Of a stretch of DNA of 64,000 nucleotides, positions 4,303-56,422 are shown piece by piece. The stretch's first letter is position 1, and every line of letters begins with the position of its first letter. The position numbers were made by a program, and so were the translations under genes. The DNA comes from a virus. Its lineage: Duplodnaviria > Heunggongvirae > Uroviricota > Caudoviricetes. A model generated the notes under the pieces. That model made no database searches. It saw only the letters and a program-made list of their open reading frames with translations, and had not been told where the DNA came from. The stretch lies in IMG/VR virus record IMGVR_UViG_3300051215_000059. One strand, given 5' to 3'.

Positions 4303-4356
4303 AAGTGTCCCCAAATGATAAATACAGATGAGAGTTATTTACAGAGGGGATTGGTA

Positions 4357-5826
4357 ATGTTATTTCCAATTATTACATTTATTGTCGCGATTTCTATTGC
4401 AGTGATCGCGGCTTGGTTTTCTATCGCTGGTTTGATGGCGATATTTTCTGCTGCTGCGATACCAGTTGCATTGATGGCTGGTTCACTTGAAGTTGGTAAA
4501 TTAGTATCAGCTTCTTGGGTATATCGCAACTGGAAACGTGCGCCATTTTTGCTAAAATCTTATTTGACTGCTGCAACTGTAGTTCTAATGTTCATCACTT
4601 CGATGGGCATTTTTGGTTATTTGTCGAAAGCGCACTTGGAGCAATCTGCGCAAATGACTCAGGGGTCTGCGCAAGTTGAGCAATTTACCGCAGAAATTAC
4701 CAGCAAAGAACAAGAAATTGCGCTGTTGATGCAAAAAGCAACAGAGTTGCGTTCACAAGCCACAAACAATACTGCCAGTATTCAGGCACAGATTGATGCC
4801 GAACAGAAGCGTAAAGACGAAGCATATGCTCGTATTCAGCCAGCAATTGATGAGCAAAATGCTATCATTGCAAAAGAGCAAGGTGGCTCAAGTCCAGAAG
4901 TTCAAACATATCAGCGCAGAATAGACCAAATTGATGCTGAGTTGGCACAACTACAAACCTATATTGAACAAAACAATATTGCTCAATTGCAAGCAATGGT
5001 TGGTGTCAAAGCAGACGGTAATTATGGTTCACAAACTACTGCTGCTGTTGAAAGTTTCAAACAGCAAAAATCAAGCGAAAAAAATGCACTACTCGATTCA
5101 ATAGCGAAGGCGCAAACTAATGCTGACCAAACAAAGATTGATGCAGCCCGTGCAGAAATTACACGTTTGCGTTCATTGGCAGAACAAGAAGTCGCTGCAT
5201 CACAGTCAACTATTGACAGTCTGAGACAACAACTTACCACTGTTTCCACTATTGATAACAGCGCAGAAGTTCAAAAAGTTCAAACTCAAATCGATGCAGA
5301 GAACGAAGAACTCAAAAAAATGAAAGATGAAAAGTTTGCGTTAGAAACTGAAATACGCAAACTAGAAGCAGAAGTTGGACCAATCAAATATATCGCAGAG
5401 TTGGTATATGGGAACACTGACAAAAGCACAATTGACGTAGCAGTCCGTTGGCTAATCATCGTATTCATTTTTGTGTTTGACCCATTAGCAGTTCTATTGC
5501 TTATTGCTGCAAACTTCTCTTGGAAGCACCGCCATGATGATGACGGTGCTCAAGAAGAAATATTTGAAGCCATCTTTTCTCGTTCAAATGATGAACCAAA
5601 GGTAGAAAAATCTCTTGACAATCAAGAAGTTATGAGTGATAATAAACCTACCGATGAAGAAATCCAAGAACAGGAAATCGTCACCGAAAGTGAAAATGTT
5701 GATAATGAGCCTACTGCCGATGAAAAATCATACACCGTGATAAATAAACTAGAGGCAACGCCAGAGCCAACAATTATCAAAACGCCAAGAAAACCTAGCG
5801 GATGGTTAGATTACATTCGAAAATAA
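4357..5826 (+). CDS. membrane protein with N-terminal TM helices, long coiled coil, peptidoglycan-binding domain and C-terminal TM plus acidic tail
   Basis: RBS GAGGGGATTGG before ATG 4357; TM helices at both ends; Q/A/E heptad-rich centre; VKADGNYGSQTTAAVESFKQQ resembles PG_binding_1. Confidence 0.6.
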   Translation: MLFPIITFIVAISIAVIAAWFSIAGLMAIFSAAAIPVALMAGSLEVGKLVSASWVYRNWKRAPFLLKSYLTAATVVLMFITSMGIFGYLSKAHLEQSAQMTQGSAQVEQFTAEITSKEQEIALLMQKATELRSQATNNTASIQAQIDAEQKRKDEAYARIQPAIDEQNAIIAKEQGGSSPEVQTYQRRIDQIDAELAQLQTYIEQNNIAQLQAMVGVKADGNYGSQTTAAVESFKQQKSSEKNALLDSIAKAQTNADQTKIDAARAEITRLRSLAEQEVAASQSTIDSLRQQLTTVSTIDNSAEVQKVQTQIDAENEELKKMKDEKFALETEIRKLEAEVGPIKYIAELVYGNTDKSTIDVAVRWLIIVFIFVFDPLAVLLLIAANFSWKHRHDDDGAQEEIFEAIFSRSNDEPKVEKSLDNQEVMSDNKPTDEEIQEQEIVTESENVDNEPTADEKSYTVINKLEATPEPTIIKTPRKPSGWLDYIRK

Positions 5827-5835
5827 TGAGGAAAA

Positions 5836-7080
5836 ATGTCTGATAATAAAAACTACTCTTGCTCATTCTGTGGCAAGAACAAATCTGAAGTCAATACACT
5901 GATTGCAGGACCAGGAATTTATATTTGCGATGAGTGTATTGACTTATGCTATGACATTATTCATCAGAAGAAGTCAGAAAAACACGCAGCACTTGACAGT
6001 TTTCCCACACCAGAAGAAATCAAAGCACATCTTGACCAATACATTGTTGGTCAAGATGAGGCAAAAGAAGTCCTAAGTGTGGCAGTATACAATCACTACA
6101 AACGTATCAATCACTCAATGGATGACATTGAGATTGAAAAGTCAAACGTTATTCTACTTGGACCATCAGGGACGGGTAAAACTTTGATTGCAAAAACTGT
6201 CGCCAAAATCCTAGATGTTCCGTTTGCACAAGTTGACGCAACTACTCTTACCGAGAGTGGGTATGTTGGCGAAGACGTAGAAAATGTAGTTCAACGATTG
6301 TTGATCTCTGCCGACTTTGACGTAGAAAAGGCAGAGCGTGGAATCGTATACATTGATGAAATTGATAAGAAAGCCAAGAAGGGCGAAAACGTATCAATAA
6401 CAAAAGACGTATCTGGCGAAGGCGTCCAGCAAGCACTTCTCAAAATTGTAGAGGGAACGAAAGTTCGTGTTCCACCTGGTGGCGGAAGAAAGCACCCTGG
6501 CCAAGATATGATTGAAGTAGATACATCAAACATCTTGTTTGTTGTCGGTGGTGCATTTGTTGGTATTGACAAGATAATTGAAAAGCGTGTCAACAAAAAA
6601 AGTGGCATCGGATTTGGTGCAACAGTGAAGTCTGAAACGGATGAAGTAAATGTGCGAGAAAATATCTCTGCACAAGACCTTATCAAGTTCGGTCTTATTC
6701 CAGAGTTCATGGGACGTTTCCCCATTATCGTAGGCTTGGACAACCTGTCAGAAGAACAGCTTGTTCATGTTATGACTGCTCCCAAAAACAACATTGTTAG
6801 CCAGTTCATTCGTCTATTCCAATTGGATGAAGTTGAACTTGAATTCACTGAGGATGCAATTCGTGCGGTTGCAAAACAAGCCATAAATAATAAAACTGGG
6901 GCGCGTGGTCTTCGCAGTGTGATTGAGAAATCACTACTTCAACTACAATTCAAACTACCAACATTAGCAAAAGAGGGACTAACCAAGGTGATTATCACCA
7001 AAGAATTTATTGATGGAAGCAACAAACCAATCATGGTTTTCAACGACGAGCAAGGGTTCTCCGATACTCAAAATGACTAA
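5836..7080 (+). CDS. clpX: ATP-dependent Clp protease ATP-binding subunit ClpX
   Basis: N-terminal zinc-binding domain CSFCGK...CDECIDLC, Walker A GPSGTGKT, ClpP-docking IGFG loop, full-length 414 aa. Confidence 0.93.
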
Positions 7081-7597
7081 TCAATCAAATACTGTTGTTT
7101 ATAATGAATACATCAAGTATTCTGAAGTCCGTGTCGTTGACGAAGACGGAAGCCCACTTGGCGTGATGGAGATTTCAAAAGCAAGAAATCTTGCTTACGA
7201 TAAAAACTTGGATTTGGTGATTATAACTCATCAAAGCACTCCACCAGTTGCACGTATTGTTGACGTTGCTAAATATACCTACGAACAAAAGAAGCGTCAG
7301 AAAGATGCAGAAAAAAAGGCACGTCAAAATGTCGTTGAGGTCAAAGAGGTAAAAATCAGACCGGGTATTGGACCACATGATTTAGAAATCAAAATGAAGC
7401 AAGTTACAAAGTTTCTTGAGTCAAATGCGAAAGTAAAAATCACCATTCCACTTCGCGGTCGCGAAATCACTAAAGGTAATGATGTTCTTCAAAACATGGT
7501 TGATGATATCGCATCACTACTTACAAATTTCAAATATGAACAAGAACTGAAACAGTCAGGGAATAGAATCACAGGTGTTATAACAAAAGATGGCTAA
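7073..7597 (+). CDS. infC: translation initiation factor IF-3
   Basis: [15 protein letters not shown]...LDLVIIT...[20 protein letters not shown]...[18 protein letters not shown] matches IF3 N- and C-domains; ATG 7073 overlaps clpX stop. Confidence 0.85.
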
Positions 7598-7838
7598 ACA
7601 TTATATAAAAGGCAATGACCAAGAGCGAAATATAAAATCAGGGACAACTGTCACTGTAAAAAATGGAAATGTTGAACGTGCAATTCGTAGGTTCAAAAAG
7701 CTATGCGTGGATGAGAATATCATTCAAGAATATCGCGACCGTCAAGAATATGTAGGCGGAAGCGAAAAGCGTAGAAAAGACAAGGATGCGGGCAAAAAGC
7801 GATGGCAGAAGAAATTGCGCCAGATGCGCAGCGAATAA
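7590..7838 (+). CDS. rpsU: ribosomal protein S21
   Basis: VKNGNVERAIRRFKKLCVDENIIQEYRDRQEY...KRRKDK matches S21 signature (ALRRFKR.CEK...E.RRRE.YEKP..RKR). Confidence 0.75.
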   Translation: MAKHYIKGNDQERNIKSGTTVTVKNGNVERAIRRFKKLCVDENIIQEYRDRQEYVGGSEKRRKDKDAGKKRWQKKLRQMRSE

Positions 7839-8071
7839 TAGACCTAGACCGCTTAGACCTTAGAACCCTTCAAAAAGAATCGTCCCGTGCATTACTGACA
7901 ATGAACGGGACGAATGATGGTATAGCAAAATTCAATAAGGTCGCACATCATAACTCACAACTTTGGTATAAGGCTGTGATACAGTCTTATATTGATGAGC
8001 ATGGTGGATTGCCCAGTGAGGTAGGACCAGCCAAAGATTTTCAACTTTTTTCAGAAAAACTTGGTCTATAA
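7802..8071 (+). CDS. hypothetical protein (start uncertain, overlaps S21 3' end)
   Basis: ORF 89 aa; real start may be downstream. Confidence 0.35.
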   Translation: MAEEIAPDAQRIIDLDRLDLRTLQKESSRALLTMNGTNDGIAKFNKVAHHNSQLWYKAVIQSYIDEHGGLPSEVGPAKDFQLFSEKLGL

Positions 8072-8075
8072 ATGC

Positions 8076-8104
8076 TTGACAAATAACAAAAAAGTTGTTA
8101 TATT
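8076..8104 (+). promoter_or_regulatory. sigma70-like promoter TTGACA-17-TATATT
   Basis: TTGACA 8076-8081, spacer 17, TATATT 8099-8104, upstream of Hsp20 gene. Confidence 0.6.
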
Positions 8105-8191
8105 ATGTGAGTAAAGTTTCATAATGATTTGAACTTTACTGTGACGCCAAAAATGGGTCACTACAATTCTTGCTTATCTAAGGAGAAAAAA

Positions 8192-8629
8192 ATGACACAA
8201 CGCAGAATTACAACTTCAACCCTTCCAAATCTATATAGCGCAACCATTGGTTTTGACAAACTACTTAGTGCGTTGGACGCTCAATTGAACAGTGTCAATA
8301 GTGGCGGATACCCCCCATACAATGTCGCCCAAATCAACGACAATGAGTATATGGTTACTCTTGCTGTTGCTGGATTTGGAATGGATAATCTGGAAATTAC
8401 TCGTGATAAAAACATCCTGAGAATTGAAGGAACTCCACCAAAAGGTGACGAGGAAGTAAACTACCTTCACAAAGGTATTGCGGGTCGTTCATTCCGTAGA
8501 GAGTTCACTCTTGCGGATCATATCGAAATCGCAAACGCAGACTTGGAACTTGGAATGTTGAATATTCATTTGGTCCGAGTTGTTCCACCAGAACTACAAC
8601 CAAAGCGTATCGCGATTACTCAACGATAA
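8192..8629 (+). CDS. small heat shock protein, Hsp20/IbpA family
   Basis: AAGGAGAAAAAA RBS then ATG 8192; alpha-crystallin domain YNVAQINDNEYMVTLAVAGFGMDNLEI...GIAGRSFRREFTLAD. Confidence 0.85.
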   Translation: MTQRRITTSTLPNLYSATIGFDKLLSALDAQLNSVNSGGYPPYNVAQINDNEYMVTLAVAGFGMDNLEITRDKNILRIEGTPPKGDEEVNYLHKGIAGRSFRREFTLADHIEIANADLELGMLNIHLVRVVPPELQPKRIAITQR

Positions 8630-8637
8630 TTCAAACA

Positions 8638-8664
8638 GAGGGGCTGAACAAGCCCCTCACCTTT
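8638..8664 (+). terminator. stem-loop after hsp20 (weak T tract)
   Basis: GAGGGGCT-gaaca-AGCCCCTC 8-bp stem followed by ACCTTT. Confidence 0.4.
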
Positions 8665-8678
8665 AGCGGATAGAAACA

Positions 8679-8981
8679 ATGGCAATAGCAGAAGTAAAAT
8701 CATCAAGTCGCACCGAAATAGAAATTACCGAACCTCTCAACTATTATGTTGTTATGCATAATGATGACACAACTCCAATGGATTTTGTGATTGAGGTTCT
8801 TGCAGAAATTTTTCATCATGATAATCAGACCGCAGTTGACTTGACGATGAAAATTCACGAAGAAGGCAAAGCAATTGTTGGAATGTATAATCTGGAAATT
8901 GCAGAGCAGAAAGTTTCAGATGTATCGTATGTTGCAAAAGCGCACGATTATCCTTTGAAGACTACTGTGGAGCCAGCCTAA
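8679..8981 (+). CDS. clpS: ATP-dependent Clp protease adaptor ClpS
   Basis: YYVVMHNDDTTPMDFVIEVLAEIFHHD...AVDLTMKIHEEGKAIVG matches ClpS core. Confidence 0.85.
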   Translation: MAIAEVKSSSRTEIEITEPLNYYVVMHNDDTTPMDFVIEVLAEIFHHDNQTAVDLTMKIHEEGKAIVGMYNLEIAEQKVSDVSYVAKAHDYPLKTTVEPA

Positions 8982-9700
8982 TGCCGATTGGCGTAATCTC
9001 TGCTATACCAGAAGAATATTCAAAACTATCTTGGGACACTGAACCAAGAACTGAAACAATCATCAACAAAATATTTCAATTTGGCACGATCAACGGCGTT
9101 GAAGTAATCGCGGCAGAATGTGGCATCGGCAAAGTAAACGCTGCCATGACAACTTCCTTACTGTTGGGTCATTACAATTGCGATGGTATCATTTTCAGTG
9201 GCGTTGCCGGCGGAATCAATCCGATACTTGATATTGGTCAAGTCATCATTGCGGACGAACTTATTCAGCATGATTATGGCACCATGTCAAAAAGCGTGTT
9301 TTTCAATGCTATCCCTGGTAGTTTTCCGGGTTACACAGAAGATGACAAGAACGTGTCATACAAAATGCCAACTGCAATGAAGAACACGATACGTCACCTT
9401 CTTGGTCCAGACCATGACGTTCACTTTGGAAAAGTCCTAACAGGTGACACGTATGTTGCTTGTAGCGTTACACGTGAACAACTAAGAAACAAATTTGGTG
9501 CAGATGCGGTTGAAATGGAAGGCGCAGCAATTGCGCAAGTGTGTTGTAACTGGAATAAGCCTTTCATCGTCATTCGTGTGTTGAGTGACTTGGCAGGAAA
9601 CACTTCGCATTTTGACTTTGATACATTTGTAGATGAAAGCAGCGAAAAAGCTGCAAGTTTGACACAAAAACTATTACCTATATTGGACGCTTGGCTATGA
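8981..9700 (+). CDS. mtnN: 5'-methylthioadenosine/S-adenosylhomocysteine nucleosidase
   Basis: PNP/UDP phosphorylase fold motifs GIGKVNAAMTTSLLL, FSGVAGGINP, AVEMEGAAIAQVC. Confidence 0.8.
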   Translation: MPIGVISAIPEEYSKLSWDTEPRTETIINKIFQFGTINGVEVIAAECGIGKVNAAMTTSLLLGHYNCDGIIFSGVAGGINPILDIGQVIIADELIQHDYGTMSKSVFFNAIPGSFPGYTEDDKNVSYKMPTAMKNTIRHLLGPDHDVHFGKVLTGDTYVACSVTREQLRNKFGADAVEMEGAAIAQVCCNWNKPFIVIRVLSDLAGNTSHFDFDTFVDESSEKAASLTQKLLPILDAWL

Positions 9701-10476: not shown

Positions 10477-10504
10477 AACGCAGCCTTTATGGCTGCGTTT
10501 TTTG
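10477..10504 (+). terminator. rho-independent terminator
   Basis: AACGCAGCC-tttat-GGCTGCGTT followed by TTTTT. Confidence 0.7.
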
Positions 10505-22136: not shown

Positions 22137-24599
22137 ATGAAAACAACAAGGATAACCAACGCAACATTCGCAAAAAGTGTATCGTTACTAAAATCTTCTA
22201 CCGCACTACCAGAAATGTCGTATGTGTTTGAATTAAAATTTACATTGAATAATCCAAACACATACGATGGTGGTTCATATGCAGCAAACGACAAATTTGC
22301 AACTGCGATATCGACATCTGGAAACTACACAATCGTTGGTTCACAAGACGAGGGTGACGCTATCGGAACCATGTCTGGAGTTGCATATATATATTCAAAC
22401 TCAACTGGTCAATTATTATACACTCTTAGAAATCCAAATCCATTTGGAACAAGCACAAATGATTTTTTTGGACAGGCAGTCGCAATTTCTAACAATTATG
22501 CCATAGTTGGTGCATCAGAAAGCGATGCAAATGGAACGGCGTCAGGCAAAGCATATATATATTCTACATCCACAGGCCAATTGATATATACACTAGACAA
22601 TCCAAATCCAGTTGACACTAGTCAGAGTGATCGTTTTGGACAGGCAGTCGCAATTTCTGACAGTTATGTTATAGTTGGTGCAAACGGCGAGGACGATGCT
22701 GGGTTGAATTCGGGCAAGGCGTATGTCTTTTCTCTGGCAACTGGGCAATTAGTTTATCAACTTGATAACGTAAATGCCACCGGAACAACTGCTTCTGACT
22801 TGTTTGGAATATCCGTTGGTATAACTGATACATACGCAATTGTTGGCGCACATCAAGAAGATGTTGGTGGTTCAAGTTCAGGTTCTGCTTACATTTTCTC
22901 CATGTCTGATGGCTCCCTGCAATATACACTAAACAACCCAAATGCATATGGAACAAGTGCAAGTGATTTCTTCGGTAGATCAGTTGCAATTTCTAACAAT
23001 TATGCCATAGTTGGTGCATACGGCGAGGACGATGCAAATGGAACGACATCAGGCAAAGCGTATATATACTCATTGAGTAATGGGTCTTTACTATATACAT
23101 TGAACAATCCAAATCCAGTTGGAACAAGTGCAAATGACAATTTTGGATATTACATTGATGTATCTGACACACATGCTGTTATAAGCGCACATACAGAAGG
23201 AACCAGTGTTGGTGGTGGAGCAATTGCTACTACCGCTGGAAAAGCATATGTATATAACTTATCATCTGGAAGTCTGGTGTATACCATTGACGACCCAAAT
23301 GCTTTTTCAACGGCCACGGCAGATAATTTTTCACAATTTGCAGTTTCAATATCAAATGACTACGTGAGTGTTGGTGCATGGAACGAAGATTCTTCCAATG
23401 CAGCAGGGACTACAATCAACGCAACAGGGAGAGCTTATATATTCTCTGCAAGCAATGGCACACTTCTTCACACATTAACAAATCCAAACGCTTTCGGGTC
23501 TGGATCGTTTGACGAGTTTTCTCGTTACAACGGGGTGTCAGTTTCAAGTATGTATACCGTGATCGGTGCGGCGAATGAAGACTCTGATGGCGTAATGGAC
23601 GCGGGAAAAGCATATATATATTCAAACTCAACTGGACAATTACTATATACGCTGAACAATCCGATTACTGTAAGTCCTGGATATATAGCGTTTGGCACCT
23701 CAGTCGCAAACACAAATGATTATGTCGCAGTTGGGTCTCCATATGGGTATGTTCATGTATTTAATACTCAAGGCCAGTTTTTGCATACAATTACAAATCC
23801 AATAGCTTCACTTACATCCTTTGGCGACGACATTGATATTGAAGGAACTAATCTCATAGTGGGGTCATACGGCGCGACTGATGGCGGTCGGGCATATATC
23901 TATAATGTTGAAACTGGATCGCTATTATATACGCTTATAAATCCAAATGCTTTTGATACAGCGGCAAATGACAATTTCGGATATTCAGTTGGTATTTCTA
24001 ACAATTATGCAATCGTCGGCGCATCATTAGAGGATGATGCAAATGGAACGACATCAGGTAAAGCATATGTATATTCCACAACTACGGGTCAGTTGCTATA
24101 TACACTAGACAATCCAAATCCAGTTGGAACAAGCACGAATGACGGATTTGGAACTTCAGTCGCAATTTCTAACAACTATGCAATCGTCGGTGCATATGGA
24201 GAAAGCGATGCTGGTGGAACCAGTTCAGGAAAAGCATACATCTATTCCACAACTACGGGCCAATTGCTATATACACTAGACAATCCAACCCCATATGGAA
24301 CAAGTGCAAGTGATTACTTTGGGCGCTCAGTATCTATATCAAATAATTATGCTATAGTTGGGGCAGTTTTTGAAGATGATGCAAATGGTTTGTCGTCAGG
24401 TAAAGCATATGTATATTCCACAACTACTGGTCAGTTGCTATATACACTAGACAATCCGAATCCAGTTGGGACTAGTCAGAACGACAATTTTGGACAGTCA
24501 GTTGAAATTTCTGGTAACTATGCCATTTTTAGTGCGTATGGTGAAGATGAATCTAATGGATTAAATTCAGGTAAAGCATATCTATACACATTACCATAA
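22137..24599 (+). CDS. FG-GAP repeat (integrin-alpha-like beta-propeller) protein, 820 aa
   Basis: about 13 tandem ~57-aa units GKAYIYS.STGQLLYTLDNPNP.GTS..D.FGQSVAIS.NYAIVGA..EDDANG; RBS GGAGAAACAAC. Confidence 0.75.
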   Translation: MKTTRITNATFAKSVSLLKSSTALPEMSYVFELKFTLNNPNTYDGGSYAANDKFATAISTSGNYTIVGSQDEGDAIGTMSGVAYIYSNSTGQLLYTLRNPNPFGTSTNDFFGQAVAISNNYAIVGASESDANGTASGKAYIYSTSTGQLIYTLDNPNPVDTSQSDRFGQAVAISDSYVIVGANGEDDAGLNSGKAYVFSLATGQLVYQLDNVNATGTTASDLFGISVGITDTYAIVGAHQEDVGGSSSGSAYIFSMSDGSLQYTLNNPNAYGTSASDFFGRSVAISNNYAIVGAYGEDDANGTTSGKAYIYSLSNGSLLYTLNNPNPVGTSANDNFGYYIDVSDTHAVISAHTEGTSVGGGAIATTAGKAYVYNLSSGSLVYTIDDPNAFSTATADNFSQFAVSISNDYVSVGAWNEDSSNAAGTTINATGRAYIFSASNGTLLHTLTNPNAFGSGSFDEFSRYNGVSVSSMYTVIGAANEDSDGVMDAGKAYIYSNSTGQLLYTLNNPITVSPGYIAFGTSVANTNDYVAVGSPYGYVHVFNTQGQFLHTITNPIASLTSFGDDIDIEGTNLIVGSYGATDGGRAYIYNVETGSLLYTLINPNAFDTAANDNFGYSVGISNNYAIVGASLEDDANGTTSGKAYVYSTTTGQLLYTLDNPNPVGTSTNDGFGTSVAISNNYAIVGAYGESDAGGTSSGKAYIYSTTTGQLLYTLDNPTPYGTSASDYFGRSVSISNNYAIVGAVFEDDANGLSSGKAYVYSTTTGQLLYTLDNPNPVGTSQNDNFGQSVEISGNYAIFSAYGEDESNGLNSGKAYLYTLP

Positions 24600-26632: not shown

Positions 26633-29299
26633 ATGAAAAAACTTCTACTTGCCCTTTTTATTTCATTGTCTGTAATCGTGTCCCCCGTGCTTGCTGGCAC
26701 AGTATATGACACAATTGCGAGTATCAAAAACAAAACAACACAGACCACACTTGCAACGAAATACATGAACCAATATTTGGGGTATATTCAAACATATTCT
26801 GCATACTTGGATGCCAACAAACATATGGATGGAAATGCAAGTTATGAATCATTGGAAGCAAAGGTTGCAATGTATAAAGAAGATGTTGCAAAGTTTGCAA
26901 TTCTTCTTGGTGTTCCGAACCCACTTCAGCCTACTGTTGTAAACACAACTTCAACTAAATCACAAAACACCGCAACAATCGTTTCTGACCCTGTGTTGGT
27001 GAATACGGTAGTTACAAATGATATTGTATACACTGATACCACTACCGACACTTATGAGGTCACCGTAAAGTATTATCAGACTACTACAACTGTTACTCTT
27101 ACCGAAACGGTTCTTACCACTACCTATTACAGTGACGGAACAAACAAAACAAATACCACTACAAATGTCATTTCAACGTCTTCGTCGGTATCAGAAACAC
27201 AAACTACTGACCGAGTTTTGATTAGTTCTGTTCAAAACACAGAAACCAGCCAGTCGGAGTTTTTGACTGCCGAAGAATATGCTGCTCGTAATGACGTAAG
27301 TCTAGCTGGAACACAAACGTTTATTGATGCAGTAAAAGTGACAAACCCATACTATACCAATAGCACTATTCTAAGCCCAAGTGGTCTTGGACTTTATGCA
27401 AACTGGCTTCCTGCTACTGGCGCTCATGTTGCATGGAGTCGTGGATACACTGGTGCTGGTTCAACCATTGCAATCCTAGATACTGGCATTGATTTGGACC
27501 ATCCAGAATTTGATGGACGTATCGTTGGGACCAAATGCTTTACTGTAATGTGCAAAAGTGGGTATGAAACCATTCAAGATAATAACTCAGTTTCGCATGG
27601 CACACATGTTGCTGGTATTGCGGGTGCAGCATTAGATGGCGTTGGCATGACTGGTGTTGCGCCTGACGCTGACCTGTTGATTGGCAAAATTGGTCATGAT
27701 AGCGGATATATTGAACTTGACCAACTTGGTAATGGTATCGCATGGGCAGTATCAAATGGCGCAGATGTAGTAAACGTAAGTGCCGAAATGAGTATGGATT
27801 CTACATACCGTAATAGTGTAGTGTCTATTGGCGATGGTTTTTACTATAGCACCTACAGCCCATACCAATCTCTTGGTTACAACCAAGTGCTAGATAGCAA
27901 CAACTTCACTGCTCCTGTTATCAGTGCGATGAGTGGAAATGACACTGTTCTTGTTGTGGCTGCTGGTAACCAAGGGTTGGCATTTCCAGCGTTTCCTGCT
28001 CACTATGCCACTATCACTGATGAAAATGGCAACCTTGCACTTGACGGTCGGGTAATCATTGCTGGTTCGTTTGACCTTGGAACAAATAATATTGCTTCTT
28101 ACTCAAACCGTGCTGGAACAATGTGCTATGATTACAATTCCGTAACTAATCAGTGTAACAATACCTATCGTGTTAGCGACTATTATTTGATGGCTCCTGG
28201 TTCTTGGGTCACTTCAACCGATAATGGTGGGGACTATCGTGCTCTGAGTGGAACATCTATGGCTGCTCCCGCTATTTCTGGTGGCGTAGCACTAGTTCAT
28301 CAAATGTGGCCATACATGACAGGCGATAATATTGTAAAACTACTCATGGAAACTGCGGACAAATCGTTTGCTGGCTATAATGTAAATATTCACGGTCAAG
28401 GCGTCATGGACCTTGATAACGCAACGTCTCCACAGGGTGCAATTGGTATTCCTACGACTGGTCGGATTGATGGGGCAACCGCTTCGCTTGATGGGCAACT
28501 TTCTGTTGCAGGGATGAATATGGCTTCGTTGTCCAGTATGATGGTCGTTGATGACTATGATCGAAACTTTTATGTTGATGGCAACAAACTGAACGTTGCT
28601 ACTGATACTCGCATGGTGAACCCAGTTCTGGCAGCATCGTATAACTCAAATGCAGACAATTACATGGGTTATACAAAAGGACTAAATATCAATATCGGCA
28701 ATGTTGCTGTATCTACAAACACTGATGGAACAAACTATGGTCTATCATATAACGCAGGATTTATGACATTCGGGATGATGAAAGAAGATGGTTCATTCCT
28801 TGGAAACACGGCGAACAGTCCAATCATGAATGTAACTGGTGCGACTACAACTTATGTAAGTTTCAATCCAGAAATTCAAACTGGAAACGGCTCACTGTTT
28901 GGGAGTATTGGATTTGGTGCGACTGACCTGAATGTTGGAGATAACTCTATGATGAAAAGTGCTGGAACTATAATCAGCAACACAGCAAGCATTGGTGCAA
29001 AATTCAACACGAAAAACGGACACTTTGGAGTTGTGGCGGCACTTCCAGTTTCCATTCAATCTGGGGAAGTGTCAATGGAATATGCATCTTCCGTAAGTGC
29101 TGAAGGTGTGGTATCATCTGCTTCTGCAACTGAATCTCTTGCGAATAATAGTCGTGAAGTAAATCTTGGTGTGTTTTACAATGTAGACGTAGCACCAATG
29201 ACTAACGTTTCTATGTTTGCAGAAGTTCGCGAAAATTACATGGGTATTGCTGGCGAAACCGCGCCACAGATTGGCTTTACCCTTACACAAAGGTTCTAA
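26633..29299 (+). CDS. secreted subtilisin-like (S8) serine peptidase with Thr-rich linker and C-terminal autotransporter-like beta-domain
   Basis: signal peptide MKKLLLALFISLSVIVSPVLA; catalytic D (AILDTGID), H (HGTHVAGI), S (GTSMAAP); C-terminus ends GFTLTQRF as in OM beta-barrels. Confidence 0.8.
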   Translation: MKKLLLALFISLSVIVSPVLAGTVYDTIASIKNKTTQTTLATKYMNQYLGYIQTYSAYLDANKHMDGNASYESLEAKVAMYKEDVAKFAILLGVPNPLQPTVVNTTSTKSQNTATIVSDPVLVNTVVTNDIVYTDTTTDTYEVTVKYYQTTTTVTLTETVLTTTYYSDGTNKTNTTTNVISTSSSVSETQTTDRVLISSVQNTETSQSEFLTAEEYAARNDVSLAGTQTFIDAVKVTNPYYTNSTILSPSGLGLYANWLPATGAHVAWSRGYTGAGSTIAILDTGIDLDHPEFDGRIVGTKCFTVMCKSGYETIQDNNSVSHGTHVAGIAGAALDGVGMTGVAPDADLLIGKIGHDSGYIELDQLGNGIAWAVSNGADVVNVSAEMSMDSTYRNSVVSIGDGFYYSTYSPYQSLGYNQVLDSNNFTAPVISAMSGNDTVLVVAAGNQGLAFPAFPAHYATITDENGNLALDGRVIIAGSFDLGTNNIASYSNRAGTMCYDYNSVTNQCNNTYRVSDYYLMAPGSWVTSTDNGGDYRALSGTSMAAPAISGGVALVHQMWPYMTGDNIVKLLMETADKSFAGYNVNIHGQGVMDLDNATSPQGAIGIPTTGRIDGATASLDGQLSVAGMNMASLSSMMVVDDYDRNFYVDGNKLNVATDTRMVNPVLAASYNSNADNYMGYTKGLNINIGNVAVSTNTDGTNYGLSYNAGFMTFGMMKEDGSFLGNTANSPIMNVTGATTTYVSFNPEIQTGNGSLFGSIGFGATDLNVGDNSMMKSAGTIISNTASIGAKFNTKNGHFGVVAALPVSIQSGEVSMEYASSVSAEGVVSSASATESLANNSREVNLGVFYNVDVAPMTNVSMFAEVRENYMGIAGETAPQIGFTLTQRF

Positions 29300-31318: not shown

Positions 31319-32716
31319 ATGACTGGACTTATTCTAGGCATCGTCTTTATTATTGCGGCAATCGCAATCAAAGCTGTGCCTCTGGTGCCTGAACTACGAA
31401 AAGTAAAAACAATCGTTTCATCTGCGGTCGCCGTTTTTGGTGTTGCAATTATCGGTCTTGGGGCCGTAAGTTACAATGACGCTGGATACTGCCAACACAC
31501 TCGGAGTATTTTTGGAACAGAAACCGCAGTTTGCGAAACAGGTTGGTTTTTTGTCGGTTGGGGAACTTCTACCGCATGGCCTCACTTCATTACAGTCGCA
31601 AACACGATTGATATTGAAGCGGATGGCAGTTCTGTCACGGGTCCATATCGTGTTCGCCTAGCAGACAACTGGACAGGTGATGTTACTCAGACCACTCGTT
31701 TTGCAATCCCACAAGATCAAGAACAATTCTTGACGATGGCACGAACCTTCCGTAGTCCTGAGCGTCTGATTAGCACTACTCTGAAACCTGCCGTTACTGC
31801 ATCGCTTGACTCGGTTTCCAACATGTTTACCATGGAAGAATACTACTCTGGTGGTAAGCGGGACCAATTCAAGAGCGAGTTCAAAGATACTGTTGAAAAG
31901 GGTCGTGCGCAAGTTCGTCAAGTGTCTTTCAACCAAGCGGGTGGCGTAATTCCTAGTCGTGCCGCTCCATCAAGTAGCGATGTTGCTGCCGACACTTCAG
32001 AAGTTGGCGACACAGAAGTTCGTCGTGTTATGATGGAAAAAGTGACAGACGCAAGCGGCAATGACATCCGAACCCCACATGACTTTGCGGAAATCGGTGT
32101 TGTTGTATCATCTGCAATTCTTGAAAACATTGACCCAGATGATGAATATGAGCGTCAAATTGGTGAACGTAAGAAAGCTGCGTCTCGTCGTGTAGTTGCT
32201 CGTGAACAACGCCTTGAGCAAGAAGAACAGCGTCTGCTGGCTATTCAACAAGGTGAAACTGACATTGCCAAGCGTCAAGCAGAAGCAAAAGTGGAACAGA
32301 TTGAAAAGACTACAAACGCCGAAACCACGAAAAAACTTGCTCTAATTGAAGCTGAACGTATCCGCGAGGAAGCCCGAATTGCACAAGAAACCTCGGAAAT
32401 CAATCTGGAACGTGCAAAGGTTGACGCACAATCTGTAACTGTTGCTGCCGATGCAGAAGCCTACGCCAAACAAGCTATCCTTGAAGCTGACGGTGCGCTA
32501 CAACAGAAACTTGATGCTTGGGTTGAAGCACAACGTGTATGGGCAGACGCCGCATCTAAAATCAATGTTCCTTCCACTGTGATTGCTGGTGGTGGTAGCG
32601 ATGGGACTGCGGGAAATGCACTTGGAACCGTAGACCAGTTTATGCAACTGATGATGCTAAACTCTGCAAAGCAACTGAGTGTTGATCCTACTATCGGAAA
32701 CCCTGTAAAGCAGTAA
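31319..32716 (+). CDS. SPFH/band-7 (prohibitin/flotillin/HflKC-like) membrane protein with long C-terminal coiled coil
   Basis: N-terminal TM, SPFH core, Ala/Glu/Gln-rich heptads (IEAERIREEARIAQE...). Confidence 0.75.
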   Translation: MTGLILGIVFIIAAIAIKAVPLVPELRKVKTIVSSAVAVFGVAIIGLGAVSYNDAGYCQHTRSIFGTETAVCETGWFFVGWGTSTAWPHFITVANTIDIEADGSSVTGPYRVRLADNWTGDVTQTTRFAIPQDQEQFLTMARTFRSPERLISTTLKPAVTASLDSVSNMFTMEEYYSGGKRDQFKSEFKDTVEKGRAQVRQVSFNQAGGVIPSRAAPSSSDVAADTSEVGDTEVRRVMMEKVTDASGNDIRTPHDFAEIGVVVSSAILENIDPDDEYERQIGERKKAASRRVVAREQRLEQEEQRLLAIQQGETDIAKRQAEAKVEQIEKTTNAETTKKLALIEAERIREEARIAQETSEINLERAKVDAQSVTVAADAEAYAKQAILEADGALQQKLDAWVEAQRVWADAASKINVPSTVIAGGGSDGTAGNALGTVDQFMQLMMLNSAKQLSVDPTIGNPVKQ

Positions 32717-33469: not shown

Positions 33470-34105
33470 ATGAAAAACAAAGTCATCCCCGTTCCAAAAG
33501 AAACACCAGCGCCACAAACCCCTCCACCACCACCGCCAGCGCCACCAAGTCCACCAAAACAGCTAGGTGAATACTTGCGCGACAATGGTGTGTTGTTTAT
33601 GGACAAAGAGTTCAATCAAGAAAATTGTATGCCACTAGTAAAAATGATTATGGAATACAACTTGATGCCAGCCGATAGAGCACCAGAAGTGATTCATCTA
33701 TATATCAACAGCCCTGGTGGTTACGTTGACAGTTGTATGCATCTGATTGACATTATCAAACAAAGTCGTATTCCAGTATATACCTATGGAATGGGAAGCA
33801 TTGCAAGTTGTGGTGTGATGCTCATGATGTCAGGAGAAAAGGGACACCGTTACCTGACACAAAACACCGCTGTTATGAGCCATGAATTTAGTGGTGGCAC
33901 TCGTGGCCAATACCATGATATGGTTGAAAGCCGCAAACACATGGATTGGACAAACGACAAGTTGCTTGAACACTACATCAAATGCACTGGCAAAACGGAA
34001 AAGTATATTCGTAAGCACTTGCTTGCGCCAAAAACAGACCACTGGCTAACACCAGAAGAAGCAGTCCAACATGGTATTGCTGACGTGGTTGTAGAAACAT
34101 ACTAA
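33470..34105 (+). CDS. clpP: ATP-dependent Clp protease proteolytic subunit ClpP with proline-rich N-terminal extension
   Basis: catalytic Ser in GMGSIASCG, His in MSHEFSGG, Asp in KTDHWL; ClpP fold; N-terminal PAPQTPPPPPPAPPSPP extension. Confidence 0.85.
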   Translation: MKNKVIPVPKETPAPQTPPPPPPAPPSPPKQLGEYLRDNGVLFMDKEFNQENCMPLVKMIMEYNLMPADRAPEVIHLYINSPGGYVDSCMHLIDIIKQSRIPVYTYGMGSIASCGVMLMMSGEKGHRYLTQNTAVMSHEFSGGTRGQYHDMVESRKHMDWTNDKLLEHYIKCTGKTEKYIRKHLLAPKTDHWLTPEEAVQHGIADVVVETY

Positions 34106-34158: not shown

Positions 34159-34266
34159 ATTGTGGCAGTAATACCACAAAAGTGGATTTTGATTATTCGT
34201 TATATACAGACAAAATAGATAAATAAATAAATGAATTAGTTTGTGTGAATGTGTGGAGAAGTATTA

Positions 34267-34722
34267 ATGTCTAAAGTTCTAAAATGGTGGCTAGTTTTTT
34301 GTTTATCATTAGTTATGGGATACATTGCATACATCTTTGGATGGACTTGGGAAATTTACACCAAGGATACAACTAAAATAAGCGTCTTGATTATAGCGTT
34401 GTATATAATTGCAAGTTTGTTTGTTGGAAAATTGTCTTACGAAAATTCCAAAAACAAAATAGTAGAAGAAAGAACCGAAATTGCATGGTTCATAAGTGAA
34501 ACTATGTTGACACTTGGTATGATTGGAACCGTTGCTGGTTTTATTATGATGCTAGGCGGTTCGTTTGCTGAAATAGATGCTTCTAATCCAGAAACACTAA
34601 AATCTGCACTTGTCGCAATGGCGCTTGGTATGAGCACTGCACTATATACTACTCTTGTCGGGTTGGTATGTAGTCAAGTATTAAAGATACAACTTGTCAA
34701 TTTAGAGTCAGGCAACCAATGA
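34267..34722 (+). CDS. MotA/TolQ/ExbB-family proton-channel protein (short form)
   Basis: LGMIGTVAGFIMML and ALGMSTALYTTLVGLVCSQVL match the conserved C-terminal TM pair of ExbB/TolQ/MotA. Confidence 0.6.
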   Translation: MSKVLKWWLVFCLSLVMGYIAYIFGWTWEIYTKDTTKISVLIIALYIIASLFVGKLSYENSKNKIVEERTEIAWFISETMLTLGMIGTVAGFIMMLGGSFAEIDASNPETLKSALVAMALGMSTALYTTLVGLVCSQVLKIQLVNLESGNQ

Positions 34723-37099: not shown

Positions 37100-38164
37100 A
37101 TGCTAAAAAGTTTCTTTTGGAACAGAGAAACCGCGTTATATTCTTGGCTAATGTTAGCATGGTTGCTATTCGTTGGTTGGTATAGCGTTGAAATTCTCGT
37201 ATATTATAATGCGTGGAACAGAGAGTTCTATGATGCCATACAAACGCTACAAGAGGAAACCTTTTGGGAATTGTTATGGGGTTGGGATACAGGAAGATTT
37301 TTTGACTTTCTAATGCTAAGAATCGACTCCGAAATGATTGTTCCCAGTTTCTTGGAAATCATTGTGCTATACACTCCAATCGCAGTTTATTCAACGTGGC
37401 AAACACAGCGTTACACGTTTGCATGGAGAGAAGCAAACACGATGTATTATCTAAAGCGTTGGGAAAAATCAACGGCAAAGATTGAAGGTGGCTCACAGCG
37501 TATACAAGAAGACTTGATGGTCTTTGGAAAAACACTACAAGGTCTATTTGCTGGATTTGTGAATAAGATTTTTGTTCTTGCAGCTTTCTTGCCAGTTTTG
37601 TGGAATCTGAGCGAAGGACTGCCAGTGTGGGGCGACCAAATAATTCCTGGGTTCTTGGTGTGGGTTGCTCTTACCATGTCCTTGGGCGGAACATTGCTGT
37701 CATTCTTGTTGGGTATAAAACTTCCTGGGTTAGAATATAACAACCAAGTGGTAGAAGCACAGTTTAGAAAGAAGTTAGTTCATTCCGAAGATGATTTCAA
37801 CCATCGTTTGACCGCAGACCTATTCCCTATGTTTGCTTCAATCAAACGTAACTATTATCGTTTGTTCAACTGGTATATGGGATTTGGTGTATGGCAAACC
37901 GCATTTGGTATGATAGCAGGAAACGTGGCTCTTGTTGTGCTGGCACCAAGCTATTTCGCACAGTTGGTTACATTTGGTGTTCTCATACAAGTTCTAAATG
38001 CGTTTGGACGAGTTGAAAGTGCGCTTACATACTTCATTGACCGTTGGACAACGATTGTTGATTTCCAGTCTGTTATAAAGCGTTTACGAGAATTCAACAG
38101 AGTGTTGGACGAAGCTGACGCCAACTCGGCTAATGCGACACCACCAAGTAACCCCACACCATAA
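37100..38164 (+). CDS. SbmA/BacA-family inner-membrane peptide transporter homologue
   Basis: 8-TM protein; motifs MLKSFF, NAWNREFYDAIQT, QRIQEDL...AFLPVLW, GIKLPGLEY, KRNYYRLF, RWTTIVDF, IKRLREF line up with SbmA as recalled from memory. Confidence 0.6.
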   Translation: MLKSFFWNRETALYSWLMLAWLLFVGWYSVEILVYYNAWNREFYDAIQTLQEETFWELLWGWDTGRFFDFLMLRIDSEMIVPSFLEIIVLYTPIAVYSTWQTQRYTFAWREANTMYYLKRWEKSTAKIEGGSQRIQEDLMVFGKTLQGLFAGFVNKIFVLAAFLPVLWNLSEGLPVWGDQIIPGFLVWVALTMSLGGTLLSFLLGIKLPGLEYNNQVVEAQFRKKLVHSEDDFNHRLTADLFPMFASIKRNYYRLFNWYMGFGVWQTAFGMIAGNVALVVLAPSYFAQLVTFGVLIQVLNAFGRVESALTYFIDRWTTIVDFQSVIKRLREFNRVLDEADANSANATPPSNPTP

Positions 38165-54774: not shown

Positions 54775-55160
54775 AAGTTGGATTGAGTTTTAGTCGTTGC
54801 CTTCGCGACATTTTTGAAGGAAAAGTTGACTATCATGATGTGTTGGTGATTGTCGCCAGAACAGATGTTGATCCAAACATTGACTCAGAATGGAATCAGA
54901 TTTGGGAAGGCTATACCCGTGGTGGATGGTCAAATCCAGAATGGTCCGCACATATTGACAATTATGATGAGTTTAGAAAGCTGGCAGTCAAGCTATACAG
55001 TGGTGGAAAAATACATCAACCACGTAAATTTGGAACACATCCACTTCGGTTGAATTATTACTGGCTTGATTGTGCTGTTCCTGTTGATGAACTTGAAAAC
55101 GTTCCCGCAGTAAAAGAAGCATGGGAACATTACCAAATGCTTGCTGGACTATGTAGCTAA
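54771..55160 (+). CDS. hypothetical protein, paralogue of previous gene
   Basis: ATGA overlap; C-terminal AVKEAWEHYQMLAGLCS. Confidence 0.5.
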   Translation: MKVGLSFSRCLRDIFEGKVDYHDVLVIVARTDVDPNIDSEWNQIWEGYTRGGWSNPEWSAHIDNYDEFRKLAVKLYSGGKIHQPRKFGTHPLRLNYYWLDCAVPVDELENVPAVKEAWEHYQMLAGLCS

Positions 55161-55170
55161 GGAAAAGAAA

Positions 55171-55599
55171 ATGAGTGTTATTGAAAAACTAAAAGCTGAA
55201 TCCATCGCACTGCGTAAAACTCGCAGTCCCATTGCGCCATCCATTCTTTTTGCACTTAGCGAAATTGAAAAGGTTGGCAAGAATAACGGCAACCGCGAAA
55301 CCACAGAAGACGAAGCCATCAAGGTTATTCAGAAACTTATCGTCACTATTGACGAAAACTTGAAGCTGAATATTGATGATGGTCGGCGTGTTGCTCTAAA
55401 CTTTGAAAAGAATATTCTTTCTGGTGTTCTGCCACAAATGGCCTCAGAAGAAGAAATTCGTTCAAAGCTGGTATTCGCCTTCGGTGGCAAACAGGTCCAA
55501 AATAAGGGCGAGATTATGAAGTGGGCAAAGTCTCACTGGGGTGTTCTTGCCGACATGAAACAAGTTGGCGCAATTGCGTCTGAACTGTTTGGCGTATAA
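55171..55599 (+). CDS. GatB/YqeY-domain protein
   Basis: AGGAAAAGAAA RBS; IEKLKAESIALRK...TEDEAIKVIQKLI resembles YqeY. Confidence 0.55.
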   Translation: MSVIEKLKAESIALRKTRSPIAPSILFALSEIEKVGKNNGNRETTEDEAIKVIQKLIVTIDENLKLNIDDGRRVALNFEKNILSGVLPQMASEEEIRSKLVFAFGGKQVQNKGEIMKWAKSHWGVLADMKQVGAIASELFGV

Positions 55600-55613: not shown

Positions 55614-56153
55614 ATGACAATACATGCAATGATTGATTTGGAGACGCTTGATGTGTCTCCAACAGCACAAGTTTTATCCATCGGTGGGGTAAAATTTAAT
55701 CCAAACAGTAAAGAAAATCCATTTGATGAGTTTTTCTATCGGGTGGATATTGACTATCAGGAAAGCACTGGTAGAACGGTAAGCACAGAAACGTTGGATT
55801 GGTGGTCCACACAAGACAAAGACGCAATTGAAATGGCGTTCTCACCAGAAGGGCGTGTTTCCCCACATGAAATGCTTCGCCATTTGAAAAAATGGTATGT
55901 TGGCTGTGATGCCATCTGGTCACAACGTATTTTGATGGACGTTGGAATTATACAAAACATGTGCAAGCAATACGATTCTCCCGTTCCTTGGCCATACTGG
56001 GCAATCAAAGACAGTGCCACACTGTTTAGTATTTTGCCAGACGACCCAAGGAAAGCATACACGTTTTTGAAGCATGACCCACTACAGGATGCGAAATTTC
56101 AAGCAAAATCCGTCCAAGATGCTATCGCCACATTGGGTTTGAATATCCGATGA
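55614..56153 (+). CDS. DEDD-family 3'-5' exonuclease (Rv2179c-like exoribonuclease fold)
   Basis: Exo I motif MIDLETLD, later DAIW and H...D motifs. Confidence 0.55.
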   Translation: MTIHAMIDLETLDVSPTAQVLSIGGVKFNPNSKENPFDEFFYRVDIDYQESTGRTVSTETLDWWSTQDKDAIEMAFSPEGRVSPHEMLRHLKKWYVGCDAIWSQRILMDVGIIQNMCKQYDSPVPWPYWAIKDSATLFSILPDDPRKAYTFLKHDPLQDAKFQAKSVQDAIATLGLNIR

Positions 56154-56422
56154 CTAACATAGTAAGTTTGGATGAATATCGGTCCAAAAAAGAAGACTCT
56201 ACCTATCGTCCGCAAGACGAAGTAGAGTCTCTTGAACTCATGAAATCCATTATCACCATACTTTTGAAATACAAATACAATGCGTATGACGTGCAAACAG
56301 CAGAGAATATGATTTTACTGAGCATGTTATTTCAAGCACACATCAATCATTTGAATGATATTGACGATGACTTATTTGAAGTTTTCTCTCTCATTAGTGA
56401 AAGGCTGACAAACAATGAATAA
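56150..56422 (+). CDS. hypothetical protein
   Basis: 90 aa. Confidence 0.45.
   Translation: MTNIVSLDEYRSKKEDSTYRPQDEVESLELMKSIITILLKYKYNAYDVQTAENMILLSMLFQAHINHLNDIDDDLFEVFSLISERLTNNE

Follow-up and report, generated by a model that had tools for sequence, protein, structure and literature searches.

The 64,000-nucleotide stretch of IMG/VR record IMGVR_UViG_3300051215_000059 (Caudoviricetes), which was analysed here over its full length and is referred to below as the window, carries between positions 5836 and 8981 a compact block of six genes for ClpX, translation initiation factor IF3, ribosomal protein S21, a small protein termed orf89, a small heat-shock protein (sHSP) of the Hsp20 family and the adaptor ClpS. 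A ClpP-family peptidase is encoded separately. A preliminary description, made from the sequence alone, had placed six open reading frames (ORFs) in the block; they lie on the + strand at the positions it gave, and profile searches back all six gene identities. The main features are the following.

5836..7080, + strand: clpX, AAA+ unfoldase of the canonical kind; C4 zinc-binding N-domain and IGF loop for ClpP docking
7073..7597, + strand: infC, two-domain IF3
7590..7838, + strand: rpsU, ribosomal protein bS21
7802..8071, + strand: orf89, small helical protein of 89 amino acids (aa)
8192..8629, + strand: Hsp20, IbpA-like small heat-shock protein with an alpha-crystallin domain, 145 aa
8679..8981, + strand: clpS, N-degron adaptor, PHROG 27368
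33470..34105, + strand: atypical ClpP-family serine peptidase with the triad S113/H138/D190 and a proline-rich N-terminus

About 130 ORFs, tightly packed, mostly small and on the + strand, are present in the window, most of them without a family match, and the GC content of about 40% is even along its length. Several accessory genes are typical of jumbo phages (TK, DHFR, RNA ligase, nucleases, a GreA/GreB homologue and a cell-wall hydrolase); no structural genes and no tRNAs lie within the 64 kb.

Conservation of the block among phages

An exact copy of the ClpX, with the same gene order, was found on nine metagenome contigs, the longest of 105 kb. IF3 homologues show a graded identity from 95% to 50% on contigs of up to 369 kb; below 50% there is a gap, with the next matches at about 39–46% and the named ones among them cellular IF3s, and the IF3 lineage is, as judged by these identities, phage-specific. 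With orf89 as clade marker, 80 metagenome and 80 IMG/VR loci were gathered from more than 585 and 497, respectively. ClpX, IF3, S21 and orf89 occur in this order at 73 loci, with ClpS downstream wherever the flank is long enough, and synteny of the block can be followed in over 70 related contigs, the most distant with an IF3 identity of about 44%. In three diverged relatives the full order is kept: membrane protein, ClpX, IF3, S21, orf89, an occasional S-adenosylmethionine (SAM) lyase, Hsp20, ClpS and methylthioadenosine (MTA) nucleosidase. The block-bearing IMG/VR uncultivated viral genomes (UViGs) measure 342–343 kb, metagenome contigs reach 369 kb, and the clade is classed as viral by IMG/VR.

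Codon usage of the block resembles that of the rest of the window (r = 0.963; random gene subsets, 0.935 ± 0.026), which argues against host contamination, and the viral origin implied by the preliminary description is borne out by this similarity to the flanks and by synteny in diverged UViGs. Chance is excluded by the hidden Markov model E-values of the block genes (1e-13 to 1e-178) together with the synteny in more than 70 independent contigs, and PHROG families match IF3, S21, Hsp20, ClpS and ClpX. A megablast search of 50,697 phage records with the block detected nothing similar, so that relatives are detectable at the protein level only. A single-sequence IF3 scan of IMG/VR also returned nothing, a limit of the pattern method, since the orf89 alignment later gave 497 loci there.

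As a conserved module of jumbo phages the block is genuine. Our preferred reading, to which we give a probability of roughly 0.6 together with the mechanism set out below, is that it forms a conserved accessory operon in a clade of uncultured and mostly marine jumbo phages whose genomes measure about 340–370 kb, and that the Rak2/121Q, Atu_ph07 and Phosso phages share the module with this clade.

Among viruses, it is mainly in jumbo phages that core translation and proteostasis genes are encountered. To our knowledge, function has been shown for no phage IF3, S21 or ClpS. The gene combination had at first been taken to be unusual, a view that has to be given up: over 80 deposited genomes of jumbo phages have an annotated IF3, and similar sets are carried by Escherichia phage 121Q, Vibrio phage 2.275.O._10N.286.54.E11 and the group of Phosso, AP-J-162 and Atu_ph07. 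In 121Q, IF3 (gp47), ClpS (gp48) and a DnaJ-like protein (gp49) are encoded consecutively with DHFR nearby, and 121Q and the Rak2-like phages GAP32, CBB and BF, with genomes of about 350 kb, encode ClpA (gp581 in 121Q) and a ClpP-like protein. However, ClpX, S21 and sHSP are absent from the 121Q stretch examined, its IF3 is about 37% identical, and the Rak2-like phages have enterobacterial hosts and a DNA identity too low for megablast. The cultured marine Vibrio phage (349 kb) encodes IF3, S21 (RpsU3) and a ClpS-like protein consecutively on one strand, but it lacks ClpX (to which the upstream P-loop nucleoside triphosphatase gave no match), sHSP and orf89, and identities are 30–40%.

In Sinorhizobium phages Phosso and AP-J-162 and Agrobacterium phage Atu_ph07, ClpX adjoins IF3, and S21, sHSP and ClpS come after them with order and strand as here; a ClpA and a ClpP-like protein are also encoded in this group. 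In Phosso, the closest deposited homologue of the ClpP-like peptidase (40% identity) and a ClpA are encoded elsewhere in the genome. A phage IF-1 gene is situated two genes away from that homologue (L093, 3851-5196), a further instance of translation-factor and Clp genes in close proximity. The three phages have been described (PMC11242549, PMC6102473); clpX beside IF-3, as well as S21, Hsp20 and six Clp ORFs, were reported for AP-J-162 (PMC11242549) and seven Clp-family proteins for Atu_ph07 (PMC6102473). In this group, which has genomes of 470–490 kb and soil alphaproteobacterial hosts, the genes take up about 17 kb, interrupted by tRNAs and many ORFs, whereas here they occupy 3.1 kb and have overlapping stop and start codons. 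Phage bS21 is also known from pelagiphages and huge phages (Mizuno 2019; Al-Shayeb et al. 2020; Chen 2022), and differs here in being strictly coupled to a phage IF3. These genes have been discussed as host-takeover candidates (Iyer et al. 2021; Al-Shayeb et al. 2020). Since cultured jumbo phages are already known to carry this gene set, current understanding is unchanged by the block, and what is particular to the clade is the 3.1-kb compaction with strict translational coupling, the candidate RNA thermometer considered below, the polyproline ClpP variant and orf89. The "moraphage" lineage of 2025 was considered as a possible identity for the clade and rejected as a different one, given its Bacteroidota hosts and that IF3 and S21 are unmentioned.

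Initiation factors, orf89 and the Clp components

The infC ATG overlaps the clpX stop codon by 8 nucleotides (nt; ATGACTAA), and in 71 of the 73 loci the infC start is an ATG lying between -17 and +5 nt of that stop. A second overlap of 8 nt, between the rpsU ATG and the infC stop, is conserved at 72 of the 73, and orf89 overlaps the 3' end of the S21 gene by 37 nt. From their ATGnnTAA overlaps of 8 nt, clpX, infC and rpsU are predicted to be translationally coupled.

Both domains of IF3 are recognised (IF3_N, 88 bits; IF3_C, 72 bits; TIGR00168, 149 against a cut-off of 60) with a Lys-rich linker between them, and the protein aligns over both domains and the linker with the IF3 chains of the 30S initiation complexes 5me0 and 5lmn. 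Bacterial infC genes typically start with AUU, which is used in autoregulation and is a regulatory trait rather than a family criterion. The phage infC has an ATG, not an AUU, with start picking limited to ATG, GTG and TTG, so that it should escape the autoregulatory feedback of IF3.

S21 exceeds the cut-offs of Pfam (48.8 bits against 27) and TIGR00030 (51.3 against 29). It bears a basic and aromatic N-terminal extension of 19 residues that is conserved in 47/47 distinct clade sequences; such an extension was described for huge-phage S21 by Al-Shayeb et al. 2020. Among the 47 clade homologues the C-terminus takes two forms, one subclade ending as in E. coli (...KKRMY or ...KKRLY) and the subclade of the window, which has lost the RLY/RMY ending, in ...LRQMRSE. 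In bacterial ribosomes the C-terminal tail of S21 sits near the anti-Shine-Dalgarno (anti-SD) region.

Better conserved than IF3, orf89 is 68–75% identical in relatives whose IF3 is 51–74% identical, which indicates a real gene, and 19 of its alignment columns are invariant. Its AlphaFold model is a helical bundle with a pLDDT of 84; there is no Pfam or PHROG family for it and no significant fold match in the PDB (best Foldseek E = 5.3). With relatives at more than 585 metagenome and 497 IMG/VR loci, orf89 (window 7802-8071; loci L060, L063-L092) is a widespread aquatic-phage protein. It occurs in two distinct genomic contexts, that of the window and a second one found at about 28 of the 80 metagenome loci and on further IMG/VR contigs of up to 365 kb, in one example beside radical-SAM, sugar-dehydrogenase and GmrSD-like genes. 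An 82-aa ORF located 5' of orf89 in the second context was examined as a divergent S21 and rejected, being acidic and without a Pfam match; orf89 is thus not an obligate partner of S21.

ClpX scores above the equivalog cut-offs of NF003745 (593 bits against 359) and TIGR00382 (574 against 371), is 68–88% identical in relatives L005-L007, and can be aligned over its full length with E. coli ClpX (PDB 8e91), to which it is about 56% identical. Its zf-C4_ClpX domain gives 66.8 bits in Pfam, with CSFCGK...YICDEC aligning to E. coli ClpX. The CxxC...CxxC zinc finger, Walker A and B motifs, GYVG pore-1 loop, RKH loop, IGF loop (KSGIGFGA), Arg finger and sensor-2 Arg are all kept in the 8e91 alignment, in agreement with the zinc-binding N-domain and IGF loop that had been ascribed to the protein.

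ClpS exceeds the Pfam PF02617 cut-off (101 bits against 23), lies below the NCBIfam equivalog cut-off (88 against 143), and aligns without gaps to residues 22-106 of E. coli ClpS (1mbu/3o2b). Residues N28, D29, D30, T32, M34 and H60 correspond to N34, D35, D36, T38, M40 and H66 of the E. coli N-degron pocket, and E73/K78 to the ClpA-contact residues E79/K84, roles which we take from the established literature. With the checked activity residues and motifs retained, ClpX, IF3 and ClpS look functional from their alignments.

ClpS binds the N-domain of ClpA, or of ClpC in some phyla, and not ClpX. Phage ClpS was likewise treated as a ClpA adaptor by Iyer et al. 2021. Its inclusion in a ClpXP set therefore needs correction. 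Relatives with the block encode a full-length ClpA that has a ClpS-binding N-domain. Four related contigs, all IMG/VR UViGs, carry both:

UViG_3300027757_000397 (342 kb): ClpA at about 89–93 kb, block at about 174–182 kb
UViG_3300020469_003050: block and ClpA
UViG_2747842453_000003: block and ClpA
UViG_3300020182_000010: block and ClpA

On three of these contigs the two are 55–85 kb apart; on the fourth their distance is about 66 kb when measured round the circle. The four ClpAs are 68–71% identical to the marine ClpA used as query, which came from sample 3300043463, where an exact copy of the window's ClpX is also present; the relatives' proteins have 738–741 aa, a Clp_N domain and two AAA+ modules. 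The docking tripeptide of the relatives' ClpA is IGF where E. coli ClpA has IGL (IMG/VR contigs L194, L269, L272, L277, L280). Cultured relatives with ClpS also encode ClpA (121Q, GAP32, CBB, Atu_ph07, Phosso and PA5oct). Most likely, the clade encodes ClpA, ClpS and ClpX together with a ClpP-family peptidase, and for the window's genome we infer the same.

The product of 33470-34105 is best called an atypical ClpP-family peptidase whose link to the block we infer. It passes the family-level cut-off of Pfam CLP_protease (115 bits) and falls below the NCBIfam ClpP cut-offs (PRK00277, 105 bits against 249; TIGR00493, 76 against 309). When aligned with E. coli ClpP, for which the reference was checked against PDB 3mt6 (207/207 residues identical), its S113, H138 and D190 correspond to S97, H122 and D171 and are invariant in 15 sequences; the catalytic triad is intact. 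The N-terminus carries a family-conserved IPxPKE, about 20 proline-rich residues and PKQPGE. With 336 homologues at 65–91% identity over the core, the protein appears to be a distinct and abundant ClpP variant of marine phages.

Relative to ClpXP and ClpAPS of E. coli, the canonical domains, pore loops and IGF-type docking loops are kept in ClpX, ClpS and the relatives' ClpA as applicable, as are the N-degron pocket and ClpA-contact residues in ClpS. The differences are that clpS lies apart from clpA and clpX apart from clpP, and that the only ClpP-family gene seen here has a polyproline N-terminus in place of the axial N-terminal loop.

Membrane-protein genes surround the peptidase gene, namely SPFH/Band-7, MotA/ExbB-like and SbmA/BacA-like transporter genes (31319-32716, 34249-34722, 37100-38164), and the MotA-like to SbmA arrangement recurs 3' of the ClpP-like gene in L175. 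An NfeD-type partnership with the SPFH/Band-7 gene was considered and discarded, because two relatives lack the adjacency and the triad has the ClpP form.

The Hsp20 gene and its leader RNA

The true start of Hsp20 is the ATG at 8192, which follows an AAGGAG Shine-Dalgarno (SD) sequence. The protein matches PF00011 (52.7 bits against 20.8) and PHROG 432, and with 135 bits it lies under the cut-off of 212 of the IbpA equivalog model. Two features precede it.

8076..8104, + strand: sigma70-like promoter match, TTGACA-17-TATATT with a TG extended -10, 11/12
8111..8194, + strand: 5' leader with three hairpins, ROSE-type RNA thermometer candidate

In the last hairpin of the leader, CUU[G]CUUA pairs with UAAGGAG, which contains the SD, leaving a bulged G opposite the SD, an arrangement that hardly varies among 24 leaders. 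ROSE elements are recognised by a U(U/C)GCU motif that pairs imperfectly with the SD, together with a bulged G and an AUG left free, all of which the leader shows. Over 24 distinct leaders 95.7% of the cells are paired; helix 1, the upstream hairpin, is 99.4% paired with compensatory changes in five of its nine pairs. In 500 shuffles the observed covariation score was never attained, and pairing fell to 36–65% when the register was slid. The window's leader folds with a free energy of -20.2 kcal/mol (z = -3.25), and in silico the SD hairpin is marginally stable, with -7.2 kcal/mol at 4 °C and -1.9 kcal/mol at 37 °C. The Rfam ROSE_3 model matches over its full length at 8138-8197 with 30.2 bits (local E = 1e-4); at the Rfam gathering threshold there was no match in the whole window. 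We regard the leader as a candidate ROSE-type thermometer, supported by covariation, which would hide the SD.

The defining features of the ROSE-like ibpA thermometers of proteobacteria, represented by Rfam ROSE_3 and the short ROSE elements of Pseudomonas, have been set out previously (PMC3669281). The phage leader resembles them in that hairpins precede an IbpA-like gene and U(U/C)GCU pairs imperfectly with the SD while the AUG is unpaired. It differs in being phage-borne, in its sigma70-like rather than sigma32-type promoter and in a score that falls short of the Rfam gathering threshold. Searches of the literature, which they covered incompletely, turned up no ROSE-type thermometer described for a phage gene.

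Interpretation and neighbouring genes

A module for taking over translation initiation and Clp-dependent proteostasis is a plausible reading of the block, with every functional step drawn from homology. IF3 and S21 would be made together and load on the host 30S subunit at the platform and the anti-SD region. The AUG-started infC would escape IF3 feedback and raise IF3 above the host set-point, and the phage S21, with its basic N-terminal extension, would supplement or replace that of the host. Together they might keep or bias initiation toward phage mRNAs with AUG starts and a strong SD. ClpX hexamers would dock by their IGF loops on a ClpP barrel, probably that of the host and possibly the atypical one of the phage, and ClpS would bind the N-domain of a phage-encoded or host ClpA, switching it to substrates with N-terminal Leu, Phe, Tyr or Trp. 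The sHSP would be translated only once heat melts the weak SD hairpin, and would then act as a holdase. The net effect would be that the phage brings its own translation-initiation and protein-quality-control capacity to a long jumbo-phage infection. The earlier proposals of a re-targeted host proteolysis and a re-programmed initiation are plausible hypotheses.

Several observations weigh against this reading of the block. ClpX and IF3 are no nearer to their Phosso homologues than to bacterial ones, and common ancestry of the ClpX-IF3 pair with that of Phosso thus finds no support in these comparisons. Hsp20 and SAM lyase are variably present, Hsp20 being absent from about 10 related loci, and since they come and go the cluster is not an obligate functional unit. 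No ORF of the window fits ClpA, and the link to it depends on relatives with 48–62% IF3 identity and on the contig from the sample sharing the ClpX. For the leader, the ROSE_3 score of 30.2 is under the Rfam gathering score of 43, and the predicted opening of the SD is gradual, from 0.05 to 0.18 between 4 and 37 °C. The promoter match reaches at least 10/12 in only 8 of 30 distinct leaders, where it lies 84–94 nt from the ATG; the sigma70 promoter previously assigned to Hsp20 thus exists as a pattern at 8076-8104 and is strong in a minority of the leaders.

The peptidase raises a further difficulty. The N-terminal axial loop of ClpP is needed for coupling to the ATPase. The phage protein has no such canonical loop (E. 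coli mature residues 1-20) and no counterpart of EQTSRGERSFDIY. The IGF-docking pocket, which we take to comprise Y60, Y62, F82, I90, M92, F112, L114 and L189, is altered as well (Y60H, F82Q, L114T, L23Y, I90Y, F112Y and L189V), with Y62, M92 and A52 kept. Of the complete ClpXP protease proposed in the preliminary description, the ClpX motifs and the triad of the ClpP-like protein at 33470 stand, but with the axial loop missing, the pocket changed and the scores below the ClpP cut-offs, its completeness is unproven. ClpX may dock on host ClpP instead. The description as a complete ClpXP with ClpS should be replaced by one of ClpX acting with a host or phage ClpP, and of ClpS acting with a ClpA which relatives encode elsewhere.

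The alternative that survives best, and which we hold to be possible though clearly less probable, is that the genes are host-maintenance cargo, each independently adding chaperone, protease or initiation capacity so that a stressed host stays productive. Their clustering would then reflect shared ancestry and the timing of co-expression, with no specific re-targeting of host proteins or start sites. A reading of this kind was proposed by the authors of the Atu_ph07 study (PMC6102473), and it accommodates the dispensability of Hsp20 and SAM lyase, the canonical state of the residues checked in ClpX, IF3 and ClpS, which give no sign of altered specificity, and the presence in the cluster of unrelated genes (MTA/S-adenosylhomocysteine (SAH) nucleosidase, lipase and nuclease). 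It accounts less well for the strict 8-nt coupling of IF3 and S21 at 72 of 73 loci, the clade-wide N-terminal extension and changed C-terminus of S21, the loss of the AUU start and the phage-specific IF3 lineage, which point to a specialised rather than a generic role.

We think it unlikely that the Clp parts serve morphogenesis or replication, with ClpX remodelling complexes as it does for lambda O and MuA, the ClpP-like protein maturing the prohead, and IF3 and S21 as unrelated neighbours. In PHROG the ClpP-like protein matches best to families labelled "head maturation protease" (phrog_94, 98.6 bits), its Rak2-like homologues carry that label in RefSeq, and its identity of 65–91% is of a kind often typical of structural-module genes; moreover, clpX was tied to replication by the authors of the Atu_ph07 and AP-J-162 studies on account of topoisomerase genes nearby (PMC6102473, PMC11242549). 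However, the peptidase gene lies among accessory genes in three independent genomic contexts, never beside portal, capsid or scaffold genes, and its product scores below the head-maturation cut-off (NF045542, 65 bits against 120), for which reasons a role as prohead protease was rejected. As to replication, no topoisomerase gene is located near clpX in the window, and clpX is predicted to be coupled to infC and not to replication genes.

That the block stems from host contamination, from a genomic island of a bacterium or from a chimeric assembly might be supposed from its typically cellular single proteins, ClpX being about 56% identical to that of E. coli, but this is refuted for practical purposes by the recurrence of the gene order on over 70 contigs, which were assembled independently, come from many samples and reach up to 369 kb, by codon usage and GC content indistinguishable from those of flanking genes, by the occurrence of orf89 in just six contigs of metagenome-assembled genomes among 185,579 species genomes, and by an infC-rpsU-clpS arrangement that differs from bacterial operons.

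A more far-reaching form of the takeover reading, speculative and to be given little weight, is a "replace and degrade" device in which a phage-specific, autoregulation-free IF3-S21 pair, produced in a set ratio through its coupling, would re-specify the host 30S subunit for phage mRNAs, after which a phage-private Clp machine would remove host factors that had been displaced or that compete. Equally conjectural is the make-up of such a machine from ClpX, ClpA-ClpS and the atypical ClpP with its polyproline N-terminus, perhaps unrecognised by host ATPases, and we would not put more trust in a holdase supply gated by a phage-borne RNA thermometer.

The clade is abundant in the ocean, as judged by the orf89 marker on more than 585 metagenome and 497 IMG/VR contigs, and nowhere are these genes more compact or more tightly coupled, so that the long-standing "ribosome hijacking" hypothesis could conveniently be tested in it. 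Testable hypotheses are offered by the putative phage-borne thermometer, by the polyproline variant of ClpP and by a widespread small protein without a PDB fold match; the most promising points for experiment are the candidate phage-borne ROSE-type thermometer and the strict coupling of IF3 and S21.

The flanks and junctions of the block contain the following further features.

4315..5826, + strand: membrane and coiled-coil protein of 503 aa with weak Tetraspanin and PG_binding matches
8638..8658: G+C-rich hairpin GAGGGGCT...AGCCCCTC between Hsp20 and clpS, with only a weak T tract on the + strand
8981..9700, + strand: MTA/SAH nucleosidase, NF004079 201 bits against 169
10477..10499, + strand: strong intrinsic-terminator-like hairpin with a T tract

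The gene for the 503-aa protein ends 10 nt 5' of clpX and holds the same place in essentially all related loci with sufficient flank. Its product combines transmembrane helices at the N-terminus with a long coiled coil and an acidic tail, and gives a weak peptidoglycan-binding match; it is 41–74% identical among relatives and matches no PHROG family. At the other end, the hairpin at 10477..10499 is likely to mark the 3' end of the transcription unit.

The start codon of the nucleosidase gene overlaps the clpS stop (TAATG), the two forming a translationally coupled pair, and the gene is also found directly 3' of clpS in relatives L005-L007. It is a neighbour of the block and lies outside the translation and Clp theme. 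Many relatives carry a SAM lyase gene inside the block. The co-occurrence of nucleosidase and SAM lyase (window 8981-9700; L006 9481-10014; L007 9063-9593) suggests that MTA arising from SAM cleavage is removed, with a role in anti-restriction or the control of methylation. In relatives L006 (11649-13513) and L007 (11199-13045), HIT-family and M17 leucyl aminopeptidase genes follow the ClpS-nucleosidase pair, and an M17 aminopeptidase adjoining an N-degron adaptor could make N-degrons. SAM lyase, HIT-family and M17 aminopeptidase genes, present in the relatives' blocks, are absent from this window.

Elsewhere in the window, a transcript-cleavage factor of the GreA/GreB type with both Pfam domains (56415-56963) adjoins genes for a YqeY-like protein (55141-55599) and an Rv2179c-like 3'-5' exoribonuclease (55614-56153). 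The two largest ORFs encode an FG-GAP repeat protein of 820 aa (22137-24599) and a subtilase-family protease of 888 aa (26633-29299).

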